From assembly GCF_056712565.1 (NCBI RefSeq), contig NZ_CM160072.1: a stretch of 64,000 nt of DNA. The stretch is one strand, 5' to 3'. The notes below the pieces were generated by a model. The model was not told the DNA's origin and ran no database searches. It saw only the letters and a program-made list of their open reading frames with translations. Below are positions 10,598-25,823 of the stretch, in pieces (the first letter of the stretch is position 1; each line of letters begins with the position of its first letter). The translations under genes were made by a program, and so were the position numbers.

Positions 10598-11503
10598 CTA
10601 TATTTCCAGACACCTGTTATCACTTAACCCATTACTGGCTTGCTGCCGTAGATATTCCCGTGGCGAGCGATAACCCAGTGCACTATGCGGATGCCATTCG
10701 TTATAATGCTCGAACGCCTCTGCAAGGTTCTTTGCTGCCGTTAACCCGTCTGGTTTGGGCATGACACTGATGTAGTCACGCTTTATCGTTTTCACGAAGC
10801 TCTCTGCTATGCCGTTACTCTCCGGACTCCGCACCGCCGTGCTCTTCGGTTCAAGCCCCAACATCCGGGCAAACTGCCGTGTTTCATTAGCCCGGTAGCA
10901 TGAACCATTATCCGTCAGCCACTCTACTGGAGACGCCGGAAGCTCGTTGCCGAAGCGGCGTTCCACCGCTCCCAGCATGACGTCCTGTACTGTTTCACTG
11001 TTGAAGCCGCCCGTAGTGACCGCCCAGTGCAGTGCCTCACGGTCACAGCAGTCCAGCGCGAACGTGACTCGCAGTTTTTCTCCGTTATCACAGCGGAACT
11101 CGAACCCGTCAGAGCACCATCGCTGATTACTTTCTTTCACAGCCACTCTGCCTGTATGTGCCCGTTTCGATGGCGGTACAGCAGGTTTTCGCTCAAGCAA
11201 CAGCGCATTCTGGCGCATGATCCGGTAAACACGTTTGGCATTGATCGCAGGCATACCATCAAGTTCTGCCTGTCTGCGAAGCAGCGCCCATACCCGACGA
11301 TAACCATACGTGGGCAGCTCTCCGATAACATGGTGTATACGGAGAAGCACATCCGTATCATCAGTGTGACGACTGCGGCGGCCATCCATCCAGTCATCGG
11401 TTCGTCTGAGAATGACGTGCAACTGCGCACGCGACACCCGGAGACAACGGCTGACTAAGCTTACTCCCCATCCCCGGGCAATAAGGGCGCGTGCGCTATC
11501 CAC
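10598..11503 (-). CDS. insD: IS2 transposase InsD (orfB)
   Basis: 301-aa translation ([34 protein letters not shown]...) recognised as IS2 InsD. Confidence 0.85.
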
Positions 11504-11826
11504 TTTTTTGCCCGTCCATATTCAACGGCTTCTTTGAGGAGTTCATTTTCCATCGTTTTCTTGCCGAGCAGGCGCTGGAGTTCTTTAATCTGCTTCATGG
11601 CGGCAGCAAGTTCAGAGGCAGGAACAACCTGTTCTCCGGCGGCGACAGCAGTAAGACTTCCTTCCTGGTATTGCTTACGCCAGAGAAATAACTGGCTGGC
11701 TGCTACACCATGTTGCCGGGCAACGAGGGAGACCGTCATCCCTGGTTCAAAGCTCTGCTGAACAATTGCGATCTTTTCCTGTGTGGTACGCCGTCTGCGT
11801 TTCTCCGGTCCTAAGACATCAATCAT
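11461..11826 (-). CDS. insC: IS2 transposase InsC (orfA)
   Basis: [49 protein letters not shown]... recognised as IS2 InsC (121 aa). Confidence 0.85.
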
Positions 11827-11875
11827 CTGCTCTCCAATGACTAGTCTAAAAACTAGTATTAAGACTATCACTTAA

Positions 11876-12010: not shown

Positions 12011-12548
12011 ATTGTGGCCAGCCACTTATTGCTCTCGCGTAAGCAGGTATCCCCATCGTTTACCAGTCCAGCACATCTTGTGGTCAGACAGAAGAAGAGC
12101 AAACTGTTACTGGACTCACTGCATGCATGGTGGAGAAAAATGCCACGCTATCCAAAAATCCAGACTGGGTGAATGGTTCAGCTGTGTACTGAATCAGTGG
12201 GGCGCACTCTGTTATTACAGTGTTGACGGTCAGGCGGAGGCAGACATAATGCCGCGGAAAAAGCCCTTTGTGCCATCTGTCTCGGAAATAAAAACTCTTA
12301 TGACCTTTGTCAAATATTAAGCCCAAAAAGACCTTACGCAGCTCCGGGAGCTTCGTTATATCGCGGATTAAAGAACCTGAAACAGTCAGACTGTATCTTG
12401 GATTTTACAAACTCTTATTCGGGGATTTTAGCCCCATGACGATTTACGCAGTGAGCTGGCCTCTTTCTACGTGCAGGTATTAGCGCATTCTGGCTTCCCT
12501 GAATTCTTTTACGAGGATCACTCATTCCGTGTCTGACTGCTTCAGGGT

Positions 12549-13682
12549 TTAATTTTGCTTCTGCTGACTGAATGATGATTGGGCAGCAAGTGCAATATCC
12601 CACATAAATCCAGTCAACTCACGAGCCACCGCCGTAATGGCTACTTGTGATTTTTTCCCTTTTGCTGTCAGACTTCGGTAACGAGAACACAATCGTTGTT
12701 GAGCTTTCCATGCAATATCTTTGGAATATTGTGTTACAGAGTCCGGTCGGTAATATATAAGCCATGCCCCAACTTTTGCAGGTGTACGATAAGACCAGGC
12801 GGCTTCGTAAAGCAGACGTCTCAGTTCGCTGTTTCCAACTTTTGTTATTCCTCTGGGACGAATACTGTTTCCACTGGAATATTCACCTGGCACCAGTCCC
12901 AGAAAAGCCATGAGCTGTTTGGGATTGGAAAATCGCGAAAAATCACCCAGTTCAGCAACCAGAGTTATTGCAATTAGCTGACCAACACCTTTAAGAGCCT
13001 GCAACTGGCAGACCAGATTGCACAGAGACCACTCAGGTAACAGGCGAGATATTTCCTGGTCGAGTTGAAGTATGCGATCTTCAATCTGCTCCAGACTTTG
13101 ACAATAGTGTTGAAAAGCAATCTGTTGAGATGGCTGACTAAATGATTGATTAGCTAACCAGGTTCGATGTTTTCCTGTCCAGTGCTTTCCTGCATAATGT
13201 TTGTCTGTTCGCAATAGCATGCTCAGAATTCGCTGTCGGGCAACTCTGCTGTCTCGTTTAGCTGCTGCACGGGCTCTGATTAGATCCCGCATAGCTTCAT
13301 GAGTCAGGTCAGGGATCCAGACAGGGGTAAGTTCTCCAGCCCGCAGTAACCTGGCGAGAGAAATTGCGTCCCGATGATCATTTTTGATTCTGTCTGTCGG
13401 TGATTTTGGTATGCGGGAAGGGGCAATAACCTGGCATTTTATATTCATCGCTGTGAGTTGATGATATAGCCCAAAACCACAGGGGCCAGCCTCATAGCAG
13501 GAAAGAATGTTTCCGTAAAGTCCCTGCAATTTCTGAAATAATCGACGTACAGCCTGGGCTTCGTTGTTAATCGTACCATAATAACGAACTTCGCCAAGCC
13601 GTTCAGGTGCAGCAATAGCAACCGCCAACGTTTCTTTATGCACATCCAGCCCGACGTAAGCCGCAATATTTTCCGAATGCAT
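12549..13682 (-). CDS. IS110-family transposase/recombinase
   Basis: 377 aa, N-terminal AAYVGLDVHKETLAVAI (DEDD RuvC-like fold) and C-terminal domain typical of the IS110 family. Confidence 0.8.
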   Translation of the reverse strand: MHSENIAAYVGLDVHKETLAVAIAAPERLGEVRYYGTINNEAQAVRRLFQKLQGLYGNILSCYEAGPCGFGLYHQLTAMNIKCQVIAPSRIPKSPTDRIKNDHRDAISLARLLRAGELTPVWIPDLTHEAMRDLIRARAAAKRDSRVARQRILSMLLRTDKHYAGKHWTGKHRTWLANQSFSQPSQQIAFQHYCQSLEQIEDRILQLDQEISRLLPEWSLCNLVCQLQALKGVGQLIAITLVAELGDFSRFSNPKQLMAFLGLVPGEYSSGNSIRPRGITKVGNSELRRLLYEAAWSYRTPAKVGAWLIYYRPDSVTQYSKDIAWKAQQRLCSRYRSLTAKGKKSQVAITAVARELTGFMWDIALAAQSSFSQQKQN

Positions 13683-13769
13683 GATGACCTCCTCTGGAAT
13701 ATCCCACCAATGCTATAGTGAGTATATAAAGGTCATATCATCTTTATGTTCTTCGGCGGCGAGCGCAGT

Positions 13770-13949
13770 GCACTGTTGTATGGGCTTATCGGCACTTGCC
13801 TTCTGAACGACATTGATCCGGAAGCGTATCTGCGCCATATCCTGAGCGTACTGCCGGAATAACCTTCCAACCGTATTGATGAACTCCTGCCATGGAACGT
13901 AGTTCTCACCAATAAATAAGCATCAATATGATTCTCCATTAACGCTTAC
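13770..13949 (+). mobile_element. IS66-family right-end remnant (transposase C-terminus with a 1-bp frameshift, plus terminal repeat)
   Basis: Plus-strand translation ALLYGLIGTCLLNDIDPEAYLRHILSVLPE then, after a frameshift, ...RIDELLPWNVVL; ends at a GTAAGCG-type terminus (about 13943..13949 on the complement); near-identical inverted copy at 47718..47878. Confidence 0.55.
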
Positions 13950-14057
13950 CTTTTCTCAGGCTATTTTTGCTTTTTTTTGCTTTTCCCCGCCACTTTATGG
14001 TGATTATCACATCAATATACATCGATAGATATTAACGTAACTGAAATGAGGTGAAGC

Positions 14058-15272
14058 ATGAAATTTGAACGCCATCATGAAATATTGAAACGACTCAGTA
14101 AATTCGGTTCTGTAAAAGTATCCGATCTGTCCAATAGCCTCAATGTAACGAAAGAAACTATTCGATCAGATCTTAATGAACTTGCCAGGCTTGGCTATCT
14201 GACTCGATGTCATGGCGGTGCTTTTATCGTCCTAGACTCGCTTGATACTATTGCGAAAAATGAAATCGCTTATGCGCTTGAAAATTATGATACAGCCCAG
14301 GGAATAAAAAAAGGCCACTCAACTATGAAAAGTCAAGTATGCGTTATTGGTTCGTTTAATGTTGATATCATCAGTTATTTGCCGAGGCTTCCCACTATCG
14401 GAGAATCGCTTCTGGCAAGTAATTTTATATTTTCACCGGGGGGAAAAGGCTGTAACCAAGCGCTGGCAGCAAGCTTTGCCGATACTGATGTTTATTTCAT
14501 AACAAAAGTAGGTACAGATCACTTTAGTGATTATGCGATCAACTTTATGAATTCGTCTAAGATTTATAAAAGTATAATTTATCAAACGAAAGAAACGCAA
14601 ACCGGAACTGCCACGATCCTTGTTAATGAAGGTACTGGCGATAATGTTATTGCGATCTATCCCGGTGCCAACATGACAATGTCGTCCGATGAAATAACTA
14701 TTCAGAAAGAAGCGATTATTAATTCTGATGTCATACTTCTGCAGCTCGAAACAAATTATACCGCTCTGCAACAAGCGATCACATTGGCGCAAAAAAACAG
14801 TATCCCGGTCATTATTAACCCGGCACCCTATAATGATATCGTCAACGAACTTATTCAGGATGTTGATTATATCACCCCCAATGAAACAGAAGCTGGTTTA
14901 CTGTCCGGCATAGACGTACACGATCTTGAATCAGCTAAACGAGCTGCAGAAGCTATCCACAATAAAGGGGTAAAAAACACGGTTATCACGCTCGGTAGCA
15001 AGGGCTCGCTCGCATTTGATGGCAAAAAATTCATTCATTCGCCAGCGTTTCCAGCGGTCGTTAAAAATACGGCAGGAGCCGGGGATGCTTTTAACGGCGC
15101 TCTGGCATCAGGACTTGCGAAAGGAAAATCACTGGAATCAGCACTGTGTTATGCCAGCGCCTTTGCATCCCTAGCGGTGGAGACAAGCAATGCTTCCGAC
15201 ATGCCTGAACATGAATCTGTGATACATCGAATTCAGAGTATACATTATCAGCAAACTATTTTTACGCATTAA
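14058..15272 (+). CDS. fusion protein: DeoR-type HTH regulator domain + ribokinase/PfkB-family sugar kinase
   Basis: N-terminal DeoR HTH (HEILKRLSKFGSVKVSDLSNSLNVTKETIRSDLNEL), then kinase domain with GG dipeptide (SPGGKGCNQA) and anion-hole motif NTAGAGDAFNGAL. Confidence 0.7.
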   Translation: MKFERHHEILKRLSKFGSVKVSDLSNSLNVTKETIRSDLNELARLGYLTRCHGGAFIVLDSLDTIAKNEIAYALENYDTAQGIKKGHSTMKSQVCVIGSFNVDIISYLPRLPTIGESLLASNFIFSPGGKGCNQALAASFADTDVYFITKVGTDHFSDYAINFMNSSKIYKSIIYQTKETQTGTATILVNEGTGDNVIAIYPGANMTMSSDEITIQKEAIINSDVILLQLETNYTALQQAITLAQKNSIPVIINPAPYNDIVNELIQDVDYITPNETEAGLLSGIDVHDLESAKRAAEAIHNKGVKNTVITLGSKGSLAFDGKKFIHSPAFPAVVKNTAGAGDAFNGALASGLAKGKSLESALCYASAFASLAVETSNASDMPEHESVIHRIQSIHYQQTIFTH

Positions 15273-15285
15273 GAAGGGACAGAGA

Positions 15286-16044
15286 ATGAATAACACCAAA
15301 AAATCACTAAAAGTGCTCTTTATTGGGGAATCCTGGCATATTCATATGATTCATTCAAAAGGATATGACAGTTTTACCTCAAGTAAATATGAAGAAGGTG
15401 CGACCTGGTTACTCCAATGTCTGAAAAATAGTCAGGTAGATGTCACCTATATGCCAGCACATACGGTACAAATTGCCTTCCCTGAAGATGTGGCACAGTT
15501 AGAACAATATGATGCCATCGTTATTAGTGATATTGGTAGTAATACTTTCCTGCTACAAAATGATACTTTTTATCAACTTCGCATAAAACCAAACGCTCTC
15601 GAACTGATTAAAGAATATGTGAATAACGGTGGTGGGTTATTGATGATTGGCGGCTATCTCTCATTCATGGGAATTGAAGCAAAAGCCAATTATAAAAATA
15701 CAGTTCTGGCTGATGTGCTCCCGGTTACGATGTTAGATGGTGACGATCGTGTCGAAAAACCAGAGGGTGTTATTGCACAGCCATCACAACCTGAACATCC
15801 AGTTATTAAAGGGTTCTCTGAATATCCTTTTTTCCTAGGTTATAACCGGGCGATCGCTAAAGAAAATGCTGAGGTGGTATTAACAATAAACAACGATCCA
15901 TTACTGGTCTTTGGTAACTATCACAACGGGAAAATAGCCTGCTTTATGAGTGACTGTTCACCGCACTGGGGTACACAGCAGTTTATGTCCTGGCCGTTCT
16001 ATACCGCGTTGTGGGTAAATATACTGACTCATATTGCAAGATAA
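15286..16044 (+). CDS. ThuA-like / class-I glutamine-amidotransferase-like protein (function unknown)
   Basis: 252-aa cytoplasmic protein; fold assignment by weak pattern recall only. Confidence 0.35.
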   Translation: MNNTKKSLKVLFIGESWHIHMIHSKGYDSFTSSKYEEGATWLLQCLKNSQVDVTYMPAHTVQIAFPEDVAQLEQYDAIVISDIGSNTFLLQNDTFYQLRIKPNALELIKEYVNNGGGLLMIGGYLSFMGIEAKANYKNTVLADVLPVTMLDGDDRVEKPEGVIAQPSQPEHPVIKGFSEYPFFLGYNRAIAKENAEVVLTINNDPLLVFGNYHNGKIACFMSDCSPHWGTQQFMSWPFYTALWVNILTHIAR

Positions 16045-16097
16045 TAATAATGGGGTAACTCCAGTTACCCCATTTACTATAATAGAAGGATTGATGT

Positions 16098-17063
16098 ATG
16101 AAAAAGAATAAGTACTCAACTCCCTTATGGATGCTTGCCACGATTCTTGCGGGTATGCTCTCCCCTATGCAATCAGCGGTGAATGGTCAATTAGGTCACT
16201 GGTTACAGGATGGTAATGCATGCGCAGTTATCTCCTTTGCCAGTGGTTTAGTCGTGATGTTTTTTATTATTATGGCGCGAAAAGAAACCCGGCAACAATT
16301 TGCGGCAATTCCTTCTCTGATTAAAAACCGAAAAGTTCCTCTCTGGAACTGGTTTGCCGGTCTCTGTGGAGCGATGGTGGTATTTTCTGAAGGCGCATCA
16401 GCCAGCGCACTCGGGGTCGCAACGTTTCAAACCGCACTGATCTCCGCGCTATTGCTGTCTGGTTTACTTTGCGATCGCTTTGGTATCGGTGTCGACGAGA
16501 AAAAATACTTTACCCCTTATCGCATCATCGGTGCATTATTTGCGGTTATTGCTACGATTTTTGTTGTGTCACCGCAGTGGCATTCTACCTCTTTCATCTT
16601 ACTTGCCATTCTTCCGTTCTTAGCTGGTTTGCTTGCAGGATGGCAGCCCGCTGGAAATGCAAAAGTAGCTGAAGCTACGGGATCCATGCTGGTTTCAATC
16701 ACCTGGAATTTCATCGTTGGATTTTGTGTTTTAGGCACAGCGCTAGCTATTCGTGTCGCATTAGGGCACGTCACTGTTCAATTACCAGATGTCTGGTGGA
16801 TGTATCTTGGCGGCCCGCTTGGACTAATGTCTATCGGTTTAATGGCCATTTTGGTCAGAGGTCTGGGGTTACTGATGCTGGGGGTTGCTTCAACGGCGGG
16901 CCAGTTACTGGGATCAGTATTGATTGACGTATTAATTCCATCGCTGGGCAATACCGTTTATCTGGTCACGATCATCGGAACACTGTTTGCACTGGTCGGT
17001 GCAATTGTTACCACTATTCCGGAATACAGAACCTCGAAAACAATGAAGAAAATGGAGGTATAA
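16098..17063 (+). CDS. polytopic inner-membrane transporter (DMT-like)
   Basis: 321 aa, about 10 hydrophobic helices, RBS-spaced 50 bp after the preceding gene. Confidence 0.5.
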   Translation: MKKNKYSTPLWMLATILAGMLSPMQSAVNGQLGHWLQDGNACAVISFASGLVVMFFIIMARKETRQQFAAIPSLIKNRKVPLWNWFAGLCGAMVVFSEGASASALGVATFQTALISALLLSGLLCDRFGIGVDEKKYFTPYRIIGALFAVIATIFVVSPQWHSTSFILLAILPFLAGLLAGWQPAGNAKVAEATGSMLVSITWNFIVGFCVLGTALAIRVALGHVTVQLPDVWWMYLGGPLGLMSIGLMAILVRGLGLLMLGVASTAGQLLGSVLIDVLIPSLGNTVYLVTIIGTLFALVGAIVTTIPEYRTSKTMKKMEV

Positions 17064-17065
17064 TC

Positions 17066-18100
17066 ATGAAAGATTATCTACAAACTGTGACGGGCCCCGT
17101 CGCCCGTGAAGATATGGGGCTAACACTTCCTCATGAACATCTGTTCAACGATCTTTCCTCTGTTGTGGATGCTCCTTGCTATCCTTTTTCACAACGGCTT
17201 GTTGATAAAAAAGTCACGGCAGAAATCCAGTGGGCATTAAAACACGATCCTTATTGCTGCGCTGATAATATGGACCGCAAACCTATTGAAGATGTGATCT
17301 TCGAAATTAATAACTTTATCTCGCTCGGTGGTCGCACCATTGTTGATGCCACAGGGTCTGAGTCTATCGGACGAGATGCGCAGGCATTACGAGAAGTCGC
17401 ATTAAAAACAGGTCTGAATATTGTTGCTTCCTCCGGTCCCTACCTGGAAAAATTTGAAAGCCAGAGAATTCATAAAACGGTTGATGAACTGGCGGCAACG
17501 ATCGATAAAGAATTGAATCAAGGGATTGGCGATACGGATATTCGTGCCGGAATGATCGGTGAAATAGGTGTCTCACCGACATTTACCGAAGCCGAGCATA
17601 ACAGCTTGCGGGCTGCCTCGCTGGCACAGATTAACAATCCTCATGTGGCGATGAATATTCACATGCCGGGCTGGCTTCGTCGCGGTGATGAAGTACTCGA
17701 CATTGTGTTAGGTGAAATGGGCGTCTCGCCAAATAAAGTCTCTCTCGCACACTCGGATCCGTCAGGAAAAGACGTGGCGTATCAGCGGAAAATGCTTGAT
17801 AAGGGTGTCTGGCTGGAATTCGACATGATTGGCCTAGACATTACCTTCCCGAAAGAGGGAATAGCGCCAGGGGTGCAGGAGACTGCCGATGCCGTCGCTC
17901 ATCTCATTGAGTTGGGATACGCCGATCAGCTTGTTCTCAGCCACGATGTCTTCCTTAAACAAATGTGGGCTAAAAATGGCGGTAATGGCTGGGGATTTGT
18001 TCCAGATGTTTTTCTGGCCTATCTGGCGGAGCGCGGCGTCGATAAAACGATCCTCAAAAAACTCTGTATCGATAATCCCGGACGATTATTGACCGCATAA
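17066..18100 (+). CDS. phosphotriesterase-family (PTER/Php-like) metal-dependent hydrolase
   Basis: N-terminal GLTLPHEHLFNDLS motif (metal-binding HxH of the phosphotriesterase/amidohydrolase family) and length about 344 aa. Confidence 0.7.
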   Translation: MKDYLQTVTGPVAREDMGLTLPHEHLFNDLSSVVDAPCYPFSQRLVDKKVTAEIQWALKHDPYCCADNMDRKPIEDVIFEINNFISLGGRTIVDATGSESIGRDAQALREVALKTGLNIVASSGPYLEKFESQRIHKTVDELAATIDKELNQGIGDTDIRAGMIGEIGVSPTFTEAEHNSLRAASLAQINNPHVAMNIHMPGWLRRGDEVLDIVLGEMGVSPNKVSLAHSDPSGKDVAYQRKMLDKGVWLEFDMIGLDITFPKEGIAPGVQETADAVAHLIELGYADQLVLSHDVFLKQMWAKNGGNGWGFVPDVFLAYLAERGVDKTILKKLCIDNPGRLLTA

Positions 18101-18106
18101 AACCAT

Positions 18107-18135
18107 TATCCCCCGGCACACTGCGCCGGGGGATG
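18107..18135. terminator. GC-rich hairpin (ccccggcacactgcgccgggg) between convergent units
   Basis: Inverted repeat read in sequence directly after the phosphotriesterase stop codon. Confidence 0.45.
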
Positions 18136-18140
18136 TCAAT

Positions 18141-18300
18141 TAATACCCCGCCGTTAAATCATCCACCAAGCGCGAGTCGGATGCGCCGTACAACTCACCA
18201 TCCGACCCAACCATAATGCTTTGCGTGCTGCCCATCGCCTCATTCAGCGCCACTTTCTGACCTTTTGCTTCCAGCAGCTTGAGCGTATCCGGACTAAACC
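18141..18300 (-). pseudogene. gamma-glutamyltransferase C-terminal fragment (about 53 codons)
   Basis: Reverse-complement translation ...KGQKVALNEAMGSTQSIMVGSDGELYGASDSRLVDDLTAGY* matches the conserved GGT C-terminus; the upstream part of the gene is absent. Confidence 0.6.
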
Positions 18301-18751
18301 CTTTTCAACACGCAGCTAGTCCGGCAACCACTGATGGTGGAAACGAGGCGCATTGGTCGCTTCGGCAACATTCATTCCACAATTGATGCTGTTCACCACC
18401 ATTTGCAGCACGGTAGTGATGATTCAGCTACCGGTAACAAAGTGAGTACATAAAGGCCATACTGTCACGAACAGTGCAAAAGTGGCTCTTCCGCAACCTA
18501 GGTGAAGATTTTCATGCCAGTGGACTCATTACCCTCCGCCTAAGTAGTTCAAATCCGGCTCGACCATACATCTGGCGTATCAGCACCTTCAGGCGATTTA
18601 CATGACCTTCGACAACACCATTACTCCAGCGACTGCTGATTGCCTCACATATAGCCGCAGCATCAGCTTCCATCCCCGCAGCTACGCACCGAAGTTCTGC
18701 TGAGCCGCTTTCGTGAACTCGAGTGAACCAGCTGCTTAGCTGTGATTTATT

Positions 18752-20131
18752 TTAGGTTTTCAGAATACGGTAGAACTCGAGTACCAGTTGCTGTGCTATT
18801 TTCAACTCCGGTTCTTTTTCACACATCAGACTAATAAATCGGGATGCATAATTTTCTTCGCCCCTGATTATTCTCCAGGGCATCAACCAGCGGCTTACCC
18901 GGGACACTGAAGGAAGTCTTGCGGCAGTAGTAACCGGTGGGTTCCAGCCTTTACGCCATTTGGCAACAGTATCCCTGACGATGGTTTCACTGCCTGTCCC
19001 CCCCTGGGCCACCATTTCCCGCCATATCCGGCTGGCATTATAATTACCACTTTCTCGTTGCTCTTTTAACCACTCCCTCCATGGGTCCAGAAGCCCTCGC
19101 TTTGGAGGCCGGGTTGACATTTCAGGGAATGTTCCTGAACGCACCCAGCGACTGACTGTCACTCGCGACAGGCCTGTAATACGGGATATTTCCCTGAAAC
19201 TACATCCCTTGTTATGCAGGGCCATAACCTCTGTCCAATGCTGATGCCGTTTTTTGCGGGTTTGCTGTTTAAGGCGTTCCGGACGACGGAGCGATGCTAC
19301 AGGCACAGATATTTCTGGCTCAGGTGATTTATTCAGTGATAACTCTCTGACAACAAGACGTATCAGAGGCATATGTCTGTACATCATTCGTTCAGGCTCA
19401 TCACCAATACTTTTTAGCAGGTGCCATCGATCGGCCACCTGTCTGGCCTGAGGTGCACCTTCACGTGCTGCTGTCGCATAGACTCCACTGCGATCACGCG
19501 AGACAACCTGTATTTCCGGATATTTTCTGAACCAGGTCGCCAGCGTACGCTGATCACGGCCGGGAAGCAGGACGAGGGGACGGTGAGTATCAAGATTGAC
19601 TATTAACATACCGCAGCAGTGGCCCCGATGCCACGCCCACTCATCAATACCGACATGAGGCGCGCCTGACTGTTTCGTCTCCGGGGTATTGATAACCCTG
19701 CGAAGAAGAGTATCAGCACTGCAACGGAGACCCGCTGCCGTTGCAGCCCGTTTTCCAGCCTCACCTCCAGCTATTAATCCCAGTTGACGTTGTAAATTTT
19801 GTAACGCCTGTGAAGACTGCTGGTGTGAACCGGCGAAGGGAGCAAGCGACTCGGCAAAAATTTTACGTTAACAAGCCGGGTTACGGCAGTACCAGTGGCG
19901 GACGGAAAATACAAGCCATAGCGTCTGCCCTGAGCAGGGTAGATGCTGTATCCGGCGCCGACGACAACTATGAACAGAGTCGCTACGCTTAAAGCATTCA
20001 GGACATTGTGCTGTTTTGCGTTTTCCGTGGAGATGGAGGGTTATACCGTCAGAGCTAATAATTTGTCGACTGCATCGCCATCCGCAAGGTAACTGTAGAA
20101 GTGTCTTAAGAGAGTGCATTGCGTTGCCCAT
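18752..20131 (-). pseudogene. degenerate ISL3-family transposase (fragments 18752..19609 and 19868..20131)
   Basis: N-terminal zinc-ribbon piece (CPECFKRSDSVHSCRRRRIQHLPCSGQ) and a central/C-terminal piece in another frame; no intact ORF. Confidence 0.55.
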
Positions 20132-20414
20132 AACTTAAAACAGCTTAGATCCTTGTTCGCCAGAAAGTTTCATCCATTTTCTTCCACCCAGGTTGCGGAA
20201 GAACCACTTTTCATCCGTCGTTGACAGATGTGAAGTATGCGGGAGAAAAAGTGAATATCTAACTGTAATAACTCAGACCGGTACGAGTACCCGGGACGTC
20301 TACAATCATTCAGGGCAAAGTGCTAAAATTTCTCTATCCCGGGATGCCCCTACCAACGCAGCACTCCCGGAGATATCATTACAGCTCTACAACTGATTTC
20401 CGCGACTGAACCGC

Positions 20415-20825
20415 TCAGTTCCTATCCTTCCAGTTGCCTTCCTGCAGCCCCCCCTCCCTGCTGTATACCCCGGTACCACAACGCGGGCAGCACTTTTCTC
20501 CTTCATAATCTTCGTCACACATCACACAAAACCACTTTCTCACCTTCACCGTATAATCCGGAACCGTCATACCCTGCAGATGCAAACGACGGGCCTCTTT
20601 CTCTGCCGGGTCAAGCCAGGTGCATCGCAGCAGGATTTTCTCAGCGACAGTCATCTGGTCATGTTCAAACCACGGTGGTTGTCCGTCATTGCCCCGCTGA
20701 AGTGTTAACGGGCATCCACAGGACACACAGCACAAAACGTCCTGGCGGTTGTGCTTCGCTGCTTCTTTCGCCGTAACAAAATGGCCTTTGCTGTCATTCG
20801 CCATATAACAGTTCAGAATTCGCAT
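20415..20825 (-). CDS. Cys-rich zinc-ribbon protein (paralog 2 of a tandem pair)
   Basis: AGGAGG 4 nt upstream of ATG at 20825; shares the pattern C-x2-C ... PWFEH ... C-x2-C with the upstream gene. Confidence 0.5.
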   Translation of the reverse strand: MRILNCYMANDSKGHFVTAKEAAKHNRQDVLCCVSCGCPLTLQRGNDGQPPWFEHDQMTVAEKILLRCTWLDPAEKEARRLHLQGMTVPDYTVKVRKWFCVMCDEDYEGEKCCPRCGTGVYSREGGLQEGNWKDRN

Positions 20826-21214
20826 ATTTCCTCCTGAGTTGTCCGGGGAATACTGAATCCTCCGGTCTGGCAGTGTGTGCAGTACCGCTCCCCATAATAA
20901 TCGTGGTGACATTGTCTGCAGTGCCAGCTGGCTTTACGCACCACGGGTAAGGCATCCGGTACGAATTGCTGCAGACGTTTAATCAACTGTATTTCTCTGC
21001 GCTCCGGCCTGACATAAGGGCACTGTTGACCGTGCTCTGTCAGCCTGTCGTCAGTGTGTTCAAACCAGGGAAGTTCAGTGTCGTATTGCGGATGGTATCT
21101 GAGTGCACTGCCACACAAGTGGCAGGTGTAGTGAGCATAAGGTGCGGCCTGTACAGTACGGGCGCCCGTCAGACGTCCGTTGCTATCAAGAGCGAGAAAG
21201 GATTTTGCGTACAT
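20813..21214 (-). CDS. Cys-rich zinc-ribbon protein (paralog 1 of a tandem pair)
   Basis: 133 aa, CHLCGSALRYHPQYDTELPWFEH ... CRQCHHDYYGERYCTHCQTG; stop overlaps the start of the next gene. Confidence 0.5.
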   Translation of the reverse strand: MYAKSFLALDSNGRLTGARTVQAAPYAHYTCHLCGSALRYHPQYDTELPWFEHTDDRLTEHGQQCPYVRPERREIQLIKRLQQFVPDALPVVRKASWHCRQCHHDYYGERYCTHCQTGGFSIPRTTQEEICEF

Positions 21215-21379
21215 AGTATATGTTCCTTACCGTCAGACGACACGCAGGCAACAGCCGTCCCGGTACGGGCAGCGTGGTCAGGTGTGAATGGCGGTTTCAG
21301 TTCAGTCTCATAAGGGAAAATCAGTGTGGTGGCCATGAACACGTCATCACACTGAAGTCAGATAACTCGTCTGTCTGGC

Positions 21380-21949
21380 TCAGCCACGACTGCAGCCAAA
21401 GTTGCGCTCACCGGTGCAGTGAGCTTTGGTATGCTCCTTCGCCAGATAGTCAGCACGTTCCAGCACTTGCTGAAAGCCGGTGTCATCATTACGCGCCAGC
21501 CACACCGCCGGCCAGGCCGGAAAATGCACCAGCGTGGCATGGCATCCGGCATCCACCCCCAGGGCACTGCACCAGGCCTGTTCAATCATTCCGGCCAGTG
21601 ATCCCGGAGCGCGGTAATCACCGGCACGACACCAGGTATCCCGGTTGACCAGCAGCATCAGATGATAGTGTTTTTTACCTTTGCACTCCCCAAACTCCCG
21701 GGCCCAGACGTAATGCAGAGTGGTGGGATGCACGCGTTTACCTTCCCGATGCTTACGTTTCTGGTAAGCGTCGATTCGGGCTTTCAGGGCATTGATGAAG
21801 CGGGATATCACAGCTGCGTCCGTTGCTGCCGGTACATCCGGGAAACGCAGGTCAACCCGCAATGCCGTCAGGCGGGGATGAACATTCAGTGCGTGCCGCA
21901 CTGTCTCACGAATACGTTGCTGCCAGAAGGGGTTGTATTTGTAGGTCAT
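21380..21949 (-). CDS. YagK/YfjJ-family (inovirus Gp2-like) prophage protein; alternative GTG start at 21985
   Basis: MTYKYNPFWQQRIRETV... recalled as the N-terminus of the cryptic-prophage YagK/YfjJ family; GGAG 8 nt upstream of ATG at 21949. Confidence 0.5.
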   Translation of the reverse strand: MTYKYNPFWQQRIRETVRHALNVHPRLTALRVDLRFPDVPAATDAAVISRFINALKARIDAYQKRKHREGKRVHPTTLHYVWAREFGECKGKKHYHLMLLVNRDTWCRAGDYRAPGSLAGMIEQAWCSALGVDAGCHATLVHFPAWPAVWLARNDDTGFQQVLERADYLAKEHTKAHCTGERNFGCSRG

Positions 21950-22145
21950 GGTTAAATCTCCGTATGGTTCATACGGAATAGCCACGTCGTAAAAAATGCG
22001 CAGAGTCCCTGAAGTGACCTCCGGCAGGGCACTGTCTCAGGCACTCTGTGATAACCCGAACGGTCGTCTCCGGACTGACGGTTGAATTTTCAGCGTTGTT
22101 TTTTTAATGTAAAAAACCGGTTACGGGTAAGGCTGTGAGGAGGGA

Positions 22146-25205: not shown

Positions 25206-25823
25206 GTGAGGAATATGAAAATGAAACAACAGTATCAGACCCGTTACGAGCTGCTCCATGAAAACTACCAGAAATGGCTGACCGGCTTCACCCGGCACGC
25301 CGTATCATGGGGCGTGTGTCATCCGAATATCTACTATTTCCATAATCTGACGCCCGGGTGGGTGTCATTCAATGGCGAAAAACCGGAGATTGCCATCGTT
25401 CCCCAGAGTCTGCACCGGCTGATTTATGGTCCGGACAAACGGAGCTCCCCGTCCCTGGATGATGATCTGGTGGTGAATTTATGCACCAGCGAACACCTGC
25501 TGATTCATCATCCGATGCTGGAAGGGATCCTGCTGTCTGAATGTGAGCGCCTGAAGCAACATTCTCTGGCAAACAAACTGATCAGCCTCTTCCGTCAGTT
25601 TGGCGGCACGGAGTTACGTCTCAAACTGGTCTGGCTCTGCTGGCTTGACTTAATGACCGGAAACAGCCTTGACGACTGGACGAAAAACCTGAAACACAAA
25701 TCAGAAAAAGATCTGGAGCAATGGATCATTGCACGTCAGGGTCAGAGTGAACCACTGACAAATCTGATGGATCAGTACGTGCTTATGGCATACCGTACAT
25801 CGGTTGATGCCGCTCACAGTTGA
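25206..25823 (+). CDS. hypothetical protein
   Basis: 205-aa ORF next to the alpA-like gene; no recognisable motif. Confidence 0.35.
   Translation: MRNMKMKQQYQTRYELLHENYQKWLTGFTRHAVSWGVCHPNIYYFHNLTPGWVSFNGEKPEIAIVPQSLHRLIYGPDKRSSPSLDDDLVVNLCTSEHLLIHHPMLEGILLSECERLKQHSLANKLISLFRQFGGTELRLKLVWLCWLDLMTGNSLDDWTKNLKHKSEKDLEQWIIARQGQSEPLTNLMDQYVLMAYRTSVDAAHS

Follow-up and report, generated by a model that had tools for sequence, protein, structure and literature searches.

A truncated ggt tail beside a complete, transposase-defective ISEc38-like element in the cobU pathogenicity island of Escherichia coli

The window analyzed here, a stretch of 64,000 nucleotides from contig NZ_CM160072.1 (assembly GCF_056712565.1), comes from an Escherichia coli B2 chromosome, and the feature under study sits in its cobU pathogenicity island. 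Among phylogroup B2 chromosomes, those of E. coli CFT073, Nissle 1917, 536 and many more are 100% identical to positions 17900–20400. The CFT073 counterpart of the segment (2336026–2338112) lies inside PAI-CFT073-cobU, an island that occupies NC_004431 2322324–2365760 and has Hma and the Fbp system as cargo (table in PMC7545054). In the phylogroup B1 strain O104:H4 the same module is found a few kb away from cobU-cobS-cobT. Relative to CFT073, the window has an additional IS3-family element (10588–11865) and an intact ISEc45 (~12303–13741), while the ISEc10 copy of CFT073 is absent from it. Two pseudogenes are annotated here by RefSeq/PGAP, one a gamma-glutamyltransferase that is frameshifted, carries an internal stop and misses its N-terminus, the other an ISL3 family transposase of 1620 nt with an internal stop. 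Thousands of RefSeq genomes already have this pair annotated. Its parts can be laid out as follows:

13963–18100, plus strand: four-gene operon module, defined by Pfam domains and by collinearity with Citrobacter and Salmonella loci
14058–15272, plus strand: DeoR-HTH/PfkB kinase gene (Pfam)
15286–16044, plus strand: GATase1_like gene (Pfam)
16098–17063, plus strand: DMT transporter gene (Pfam)
17066–18100, plus strand: PTE-family protein gene (Pfam)
18108–18134, no strand assigned: GC-rich hairpin in the gap where the PTE-family gene and ggt converge
18140–18438, minus strand: 3' pseudogene remnant of ggt, approximately residues 483–580 of K-12 Ggt
18439–18462, minus strand: spacer of 24 nt, from its match to the ISEc45 tip in the window probably what is left of the left-end tip of an ISEc45-like (IS110 family) element
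18463–20226, minus strand: ISEc38-like insertion sequence (ISL3 family), complete, 1764 bp, delimited by gapless alignment to intact copies
18463–18504, no strand assigned: left terminal inverted repeat of the ISEc38-like element, pairing with 20185–20226
18512–20131, minus strand: pseudogene of the ISEc38 transposase, by translation a single frame of 540 codons
20185–20226, no strand assigned: right terminal inverted repeat of the ISEc38-like element, beyond the span of the first reading

An earlier note on this DNA had recognized a 3' fragment of ggt here and had made its alignment to ggt at the nucleotide level the point on which the claim would stand or fall. The fragment is indeed present, on the minus strand, and terminates in a stop codon (18140–18142) in the same position as in K-12 ggt. 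The minus strand of 18140–18433 matches nucleotides 1449–1743 of K-12 ggt (b3447) at 272 of 295 positions (92.2%, E = 9e-123, with one 1-nt gap), so this test does not refute the claim. The last ~53 codons allotted to the fragment in that note were too few: homology spans ~98 codons, the final sixth of the gene, and a 1-nt deletion in the T-run at 18302–18305 puts the 44 codons upstream of it in another frame, and only what follows it had been seen. When the two frames are taken together, tblastn recovers Ggt residues 477–529 and 527–580, such that homology to ggt is apparent at both the nucleotide and the protein level. Beyond the 1-nt deletion, the tail of this strain is interrupted by two nonsense codons, TGA at 18424–18426 and TAG at 18316–18318; it therefore has no uninterrupted reading frame, nor could it specify a full-length proenzyme, since the remnant begins only at about residue 483. 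Compared with E. coli ggt, which codes for the glutathione hydrolase proenzyme of the Ntn-hydrolase family, the tail has kept the same C-terminal peptide (...DDLTAGY) but is without the signal peptide, the large subunit and Thr391, the autoprocessing and catalytic threonine of the E. coli enzyme. No further ggt-like sequence occurs in the window besides this remnant. The tail is ggt by descent and falls short of a functional gene on every count. At its upstream edge it reads GTTACCGGTAGC|TGA, where K-12 reads GTTACCGGTAGC...CGG; one guess from manual alignment is that a loss of 12 nt between two CGGTAGC repeats might account for this, which would shift the edge of ggt from 18433 to 18438.

The same note had the fragment ending at a hairpin. 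The hairpin is real and lies at 18108–18134, with a stem of 12 pairs (9 of them G-C), a loop of 3 and a minus-strand tail, AATGGTTTTA, that includes a T-run, but it is located past the ggt stop codon and not at the break in the gene. A GC-rich hairpin of other sequence is found at the equivalent site in the Citrobacter and Salmonella loci considered below and also downstream of K-12 ggt. In form and position the one in the window looks like a candidate intrinsic terminator of the minus-strand ggt.

The provenance of the tail is illuminated by the operon that converges on it. A scan with the PTE-family protein across one genome per species (GTDB representatives) retrieved its closest relatives from Salmonella enterica subsp. 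diarizonae and three Citrobacter species, at 86–88% amino acid identity, and in all four of these loci ggt lies immediately downstream of the operon in convergent orientation. In the three Citrobacter loci this ggt is full length (its product has 580–581 aa and 92% identity to K-12 Ggt), and yhhA and then ugpQ come after it; it is therefore the core ggt locus. Positions 13963–18433 of the window are collinear with the Citrobacter and S. diarizonae loci at 76% nucleotide identity (74–80%), and share with the operon of the C. freundii complex and S. diarizonae the gene order, the convergent ggt and the position of the intergenic hairpin. What sets them apart is the setting—theirs is a core locus with an intact ggt, whereas the module in the window belongs to the cobU island and lies between IS remnants. 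Because the operon adjoins an intact core ggt in Citrobacter and S. diarizonae, the tail most likely hitchhiked with it, as a relic of the surroundings from which the operon came.

Alternatively, the tail might be a decayed partial duplicate of the genome's own core ggt, with the 8% divergence reflecting pseudogene drift. Such a source would be at hand in every E. coli genome (a core ggt is matched elsewhere in 5425 of the 5426 complete genomes, close relatives of this strain included), and the E. coli gene, at 92%, is the closest of everything compared. Nevertheless, the pattern of substitutions makes this account very improbable. The differences from K-12 that are common to the B1 and B2 tails comprise 12 synonymous and 8 non-synonymous changes and one 1-nt deletion, where neutral drift would be expected to give synonymous and non-synonymous changes in a ratio of ~1:3; the four lineage-specific changes in the tail, on the other hand, are all non-synonymous or nonsense. 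It follows that most of the 8% would have accrued in a working gene of another lineage rather than by the drift of a duplicate. Further, the adjacent ISEc38 copies of B1 and B2 genomes are only ~1.6% different, so that a divergence of 8% would need far longer than the island's history in E. coli. The flank also speaks against a local duplication, in that homology to the K-12 ggt locus is absent beyond the stop codon of the tail: the tail adjoins the PTE operon, as in the Citrobacter and Salmonella arrangement, while the K-12 gene adjoins yrhB. Over the same 295 nt the tail is 81–83% identical to the Citrobacter and Salmonella ggt genes, and K-12 ggt is 83–84% identical to them. By these comparisons the tail is an Escherichia-type allele, ~8% off E. 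coli's own gene, and not a copy of the resident one; the part of ggt that was lost probably never came from this genome's own ggt.

Searches within E. coli and beyond did not find the donor. A chimeric query composed of the 3' end of the PTE gene and the full K-12 ggt was covered to at least 80% at no place, i.e., a full ggt beside the PTE gene occurs in 0 of 5426 complete E. coli genomes. The operon was found in none of the Escherichia genomes among the GTDB species representatives, and a set of 5.8 billion proteins contained no protein from outside E. coli with 92–97% identity to the PTE protein. One protein match at 91%, labeled 'E. coli' (P0007), turned out to come from this same cobU locus, in a copy where the gene is truncated.

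On the far side of the tail lies an ISEc38-like element of the ISL3 family. For comparison, ISEc38 was represented by copies on IncF plasmids, with an intact gene of 539 aa, for which the RefSeq name is 'ISL3-like element ISEc38 family transposase'; against these intact copies the element in the window is 95.6% identical over 1764 bp, with 78 mismatches and 0 gaps. A repeat search delineated arms of 43 nt (18462–18504 and 20185–20227) that are 79% complementary and separated by 1680 nt, each with its outermost position just outside the element; the left inverted repeat has a GGCTCTTCC motif 21 nt inside its tip. The ends, TGTCACG...CGTTGACA, are identical in four unrelated contexts. Thus, both near-identity to an ISEc38 named as such by RefSeq and terminal inverted repeats at the two ends are present. 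In the first reading this part had been described as scrambled pieces of an ISL3 transposase. Transposase coding sequence does extend to 20131, but rather than pieces it forms one collinear frame of 540 codons with two stops, and the span assigned to the feature (18107–20131) omitted the right-hand 95 nt of the element (20132–20226) along with its inverted repeat. The first reading is thereby corrected to a whole IS next to a tail of ~98 codons.

The nonsense codons of the transposase are S88* (19868–19870) and Q460* (18752–18754), and the gene is accordingly not intact; the conceptual product differs from the intact ISEc38 transposase at 33 positions, the two stops included. It still matches the Pfam domains DDE_Tnp_ISL3 (PF01610, E = 2.2e-29) and Zn_ribbon_ISL3 (PF14690, E = 5.1e-7) above their curated cut-offs. 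With plasmid ISEc38 the element shares length (1764 bp), ends and the 540-codon transposase frame; it is distinguished from it by being chromosomal, mostly fixed, interrupted by two nonsense codons and devoid of a flanking direct repeat. Judged on sequence, domains and ends, it is an ISEc38 isoform, yet a non-autonomous one.

With CATAC as its left flank and GATGT as its right, the element shows no target-site duplication. The target duplication usually quoted for the ISL3 family is 8 bp, and no 8-bp duplication was seen at this locus or at any ISEc38 copy examined; flush 5-bp direct repeats are present at two of five other ISEc38 contexts, namely GTACT/GTACT (L087) and ATTAC/ATTAC (L111, an ISEc12 istA gene interrupted by the IS), and the remaining three are without them. 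The absence of a duplication at this locus is thus weak evidence when taken by itself, since three of the five other copies lack one likewise. A direct repeat at 18439–18453 and 20248–20262 (12 of 15 positions) was considered as a displaced duplication and set aside as chance or unsupported, neither copy being flush with the IS. The left and right flanks of the element are unrelated to each other, and the right flank is unrelated to ggt; therefore, the element lies at a rearrangement junction. In light of this, ISEc38 would mark the junction of island modules, because it combines unrelated flanks with the lack of a target duplication, though both of its inverted repeats are present.

The ggt homology ends at 18433–18438 and the IS terminus is at 18463, leaving 24–29 nt of sequence between them that is not ggt. 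The 24-nt spacer, AAAGTGAGTACATAAAGGCCATAC, has no similarity to ggt, and, with as many as 6 mismatches allowed, it matches the window only at 13715–13738, ATAGTGAGTATATAAAGGTCATAT, where 20 of 24 positions are identical; with as many as 4 allowed, 4e-4 chance matches to the spacer would be expected in the window. This matching site is the outer, transposase-proximal tip of the intact ISEc45 copy (~12303–13741), which has the DEDD_Tnp_IS110 and Transposase_20 domains and whose boundaries were set by the empty site in CFT073. Relatives of ISEc45 are labeled 'IS110 family RNA-guided transposase' by RefSeq. Both the spacer and the ISEc45 tip terminate at an element boundary, the outer end of the spacer abutting ISEc38 and its inner end being joined to ggt. 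An IS110-family element in the full sense would have a DEDD transposase and both ends, and here there is a tip-like sequence of 24 nt only; with those 24 nt as the whole of the record, the spacer is probably a relic of an ISEc45-like element of the IS110 family. At ~83% identity it would derive from a relative and not from ISEc45 itself, and compared with ISEc45 it is missing the outermost ~4 nt of the end, the transposase and the other end altogether. The transposase-proximal end of the source element would be predicted to begin (ATGA)TATGGCCTTTATGTACTCACT. A metagenome scan with the 20-nt tip of the spacer returned 16 matches, all 16 of them the same E. coli junction, and no intact element carrying the exact tip.

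This spacer bears directly on how the gene was broken. The earlier note had seen a deletion scar suggestive of an ISL3-mediated event, and most of ggt is indeed missing beside an ISL3 element; that this element mediated the deletion is doubtful, given the 24-nt spacer and an IS that is not flush with the break. In its full form this explanation would have ISEc38 inserting in or near an intact ggt, and an adjacent deletion or ISEc38–ISEc38 recombination removing the 5' part of ggt with its neighbors in a single step. The proximity of the IS to the break (24–29 nt), the lack of a target duplication and a right flank unrelated to ggt are all as this would have it, and IS-bounded modules are typical of the island, an IS66-family end occurring near the other edge of the module. 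However, an adjacent deletion made by the transposase would bring the broken gene directly up to the IS end; as the spacer parts ggt from the IS terminus, the break is not of that kind, and the 24 nt that intervene are not ggt and resemble the tip of an IS110-family element. Recombination between two IS copies would keep the original left flank of one of them, and the flank at the junction is not ggt. Moreover, the intermediate state was encountered in no genome searched. We therefore regard this course of events as unlikely, if less so than the duplication of the resident gene.

The distribution of the junction indicates that it is old within E. coli. At least 80% of 17900–20400 is carried by 2587 of 5426 complete E. 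coli genomes (~48%). In O104:H4 the junctions are identical, and the spacer, the 1-nt deletion in the tail and Q460* are all shared, whereas its transposase has serine at codon 88 and its tail has TGG and GAG where B2 has TGA and TAG. As these lesions are common to B1 and B2, the truncation, the frameshift and the first IS-inactivating mutation predate the divergence of the two, i.e., the scar dates to before the B1/B2 split; decay since then, as read from the codons that differ, has been independent in each lineage. No genome showed an empty site or another right-flank context for the IS, every variant being the same locus with a secondary deletion, and paralogous island modules match solely from 20440 onward. 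Since all carriers have the same junctions, the order of events is not recoverable from extant sequences.

It might be asked if a structure kept across ~2600 genomes has a product, for instance a regulatory RNA or a small protein read from the ggt tail. Short ORFs are present (e.g., 18140–18253, 37 aa), but the region has no Rfam match, and 17900–20500 has no promoter-like site. The catalytic Thr391 and the entire large subunit of Ggt are missing, the lineage-specific changes of the tail are, as noted, all non-synonymous or nonsense, and in some strains secondary deletions that start inside the IS or just past it have removed parts of the IS and of the right flank. Such a role is barely credible, the least so of all the explanations considered. 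Given the lack of any Rfam match, of any promoter-like site and of constraint on the ggt tail, the arrangement is an ordinary pathogenicity-island mosaic without sign of function.

Together with the gene order conserved in other genera and the lesions that B1 and B2 share or have acquired separately, these observations make it quite probable that the scar is a non-functional, mostly fixed rearrangement inside a cobU-adjacent pathogenicity island, with a ggt tail that came along as a hitchhiker. The course of events may have been as follows. A module of ~4.5 kb with the PfkB/DeoR, GATase1-like, DMT and PTE genes would have been lifted from the chromosome of what we infer to be an Escherichia-lineage donor, in which the operon stood tail-to-tail with the core ggt as it does in present-day Citrobacter and Salmonella enterica subsp. 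diarizonae; the terminator hairpin that the two share and the final ~295–300 nt of ggt would have been carried along with it. The 5' five-sixths of that copy of ggt (1.45 kb) would have been lost by deletion or illegitimate recombination. The other endpoint would have fallen within an ISEc45-like IS110-family element, ~24 nt in from its left end; the interior of that element was presumably deleted too, and the element would have abutted a copy of ISEc38. The transposase of the latter would have been lost through Q460* before B1 and B2 diverged, and the scar would afterwards have decayed by point mutation only, the B2 lineage gaining S88* and the TGA and TAG of the ggt tail. No activity would be expected from the region, except that the hairpin may still terminate the operon.

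A more pointed version of this history would see three nested mobile-element events in the scar. In it, the operon was cut from the ggt locus of an unsampled Escherichia lineage and so preserves an ancestral gene order of Escherichia, Salmonella and Citrobacter that has otherwise been lost in E. coli, while the spacer is the last trace of an RNA-guided ISEc45-like element that once stood end-to-end with ISEc38. This we put forward tentatively, as a possibility somewhat short of evenly balanced. The significance of the locus is small, ISEc38 being a routinely reported element; its use lies in the ggt tail, which would serve as a provenance tag by which an uncharacterized four-gene operon of the cobU island may be traced to a place beside ggt, where it is still found in Citrobacter and some Salmonella. 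Among the variants of the junction, one in which the first 34 nt of ISEc38 stand beside an IS110 transposase (H65) was considered as a case of the ISEc38 end being targeted by IS110, and proved to be a secondary deletion of the same locus.

On its left side, too, the operon module seems to be bounded by an insertion sequence (IS) end, as the region conserved with Citrobacter and Salmonella begins only ~13 nt past an IS66-like end. The features on this side of the module are:

10588-11865, IS3-family element, not at the corresponding position of CFT073
12303-13741, intact ISEc45 (IS110 family), with its transposase at 12549-13682, minus strand
13742-13950, IS66-family sequence: terminal part (3') of a transposase gene, then a putative terminal repeat
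14058-18100, four-gene operon: DeoR-HTH/PfkB kinase fusion, GATase1_like protein, DMT/YdcZ transporter and PTE-family hydrolase

The 3' end of the IS66-family transposase gene is followed by ACGCTTAC (13945-13950), which we take to resemble the terminal repeat of that family, and the Citrobacter/Salmonella operon homology starts at 13963. Relatives of the PTE-family protein are found in Citrobacter, Salmonella, Klebsiella, Proteus, Providencia and Budvicia, and many Actinobacteria have them at 45-64% amino acid identity. In E. coli O104:H4, the transporter gene of the operon carries an internal stop.

The IS66-family remnant is itself the insertion site of ISEc45, for which CFT073 has the empty site (AAAAACTTTATGTTC), and a CT core is apparent at both sides of the element. 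Nearly all matching ISEc45 copies from other E. coli genomes share a common flanking sequence, and an IS66-family transposase is annotated next to many of them. The element contains sub-terminal inverted repeats (TATGACCTTT / AAAGGTCATA) and, downstream of its transposase, a non-coding stretch of 246 nt, in which its guide (bridge) RNA could reside.

Two further mobile-element differences separate the window from CFT073. The IS3-family element at 10588-11865 has two overlapping ORFs on the minus strand, presumably resembling InsC/InsD of IS2. At 25435-25440, the window lacks an ISEc10 (IS21 family) copy present in CFT073, and the alignment with the CFT073 locus skips there from position 19542 to 21952 of that locus.

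On the other side of the module, the 213 nt forming the right flank of the ISEc38-like element (20227-20439) are locus-specific, and the paralogous zinc-ribbon/inovirus-Gp2 modules of other islands align with the window from 20440 onward only. By ISL3-family standards, the ISEc38 transposase (18512-20131) is a long one, with 539 aa; the match to DDE_Tnp_ISL3 falls into two separate stretches, between which lie weak helix-turn-helix matches (residues ~293-340).

According to two Rfam matches, the window's right end lies at the his locus:

54963-55037, minus strand, sRNA STnc240
57776-57899, plus strand, histidine operon leader
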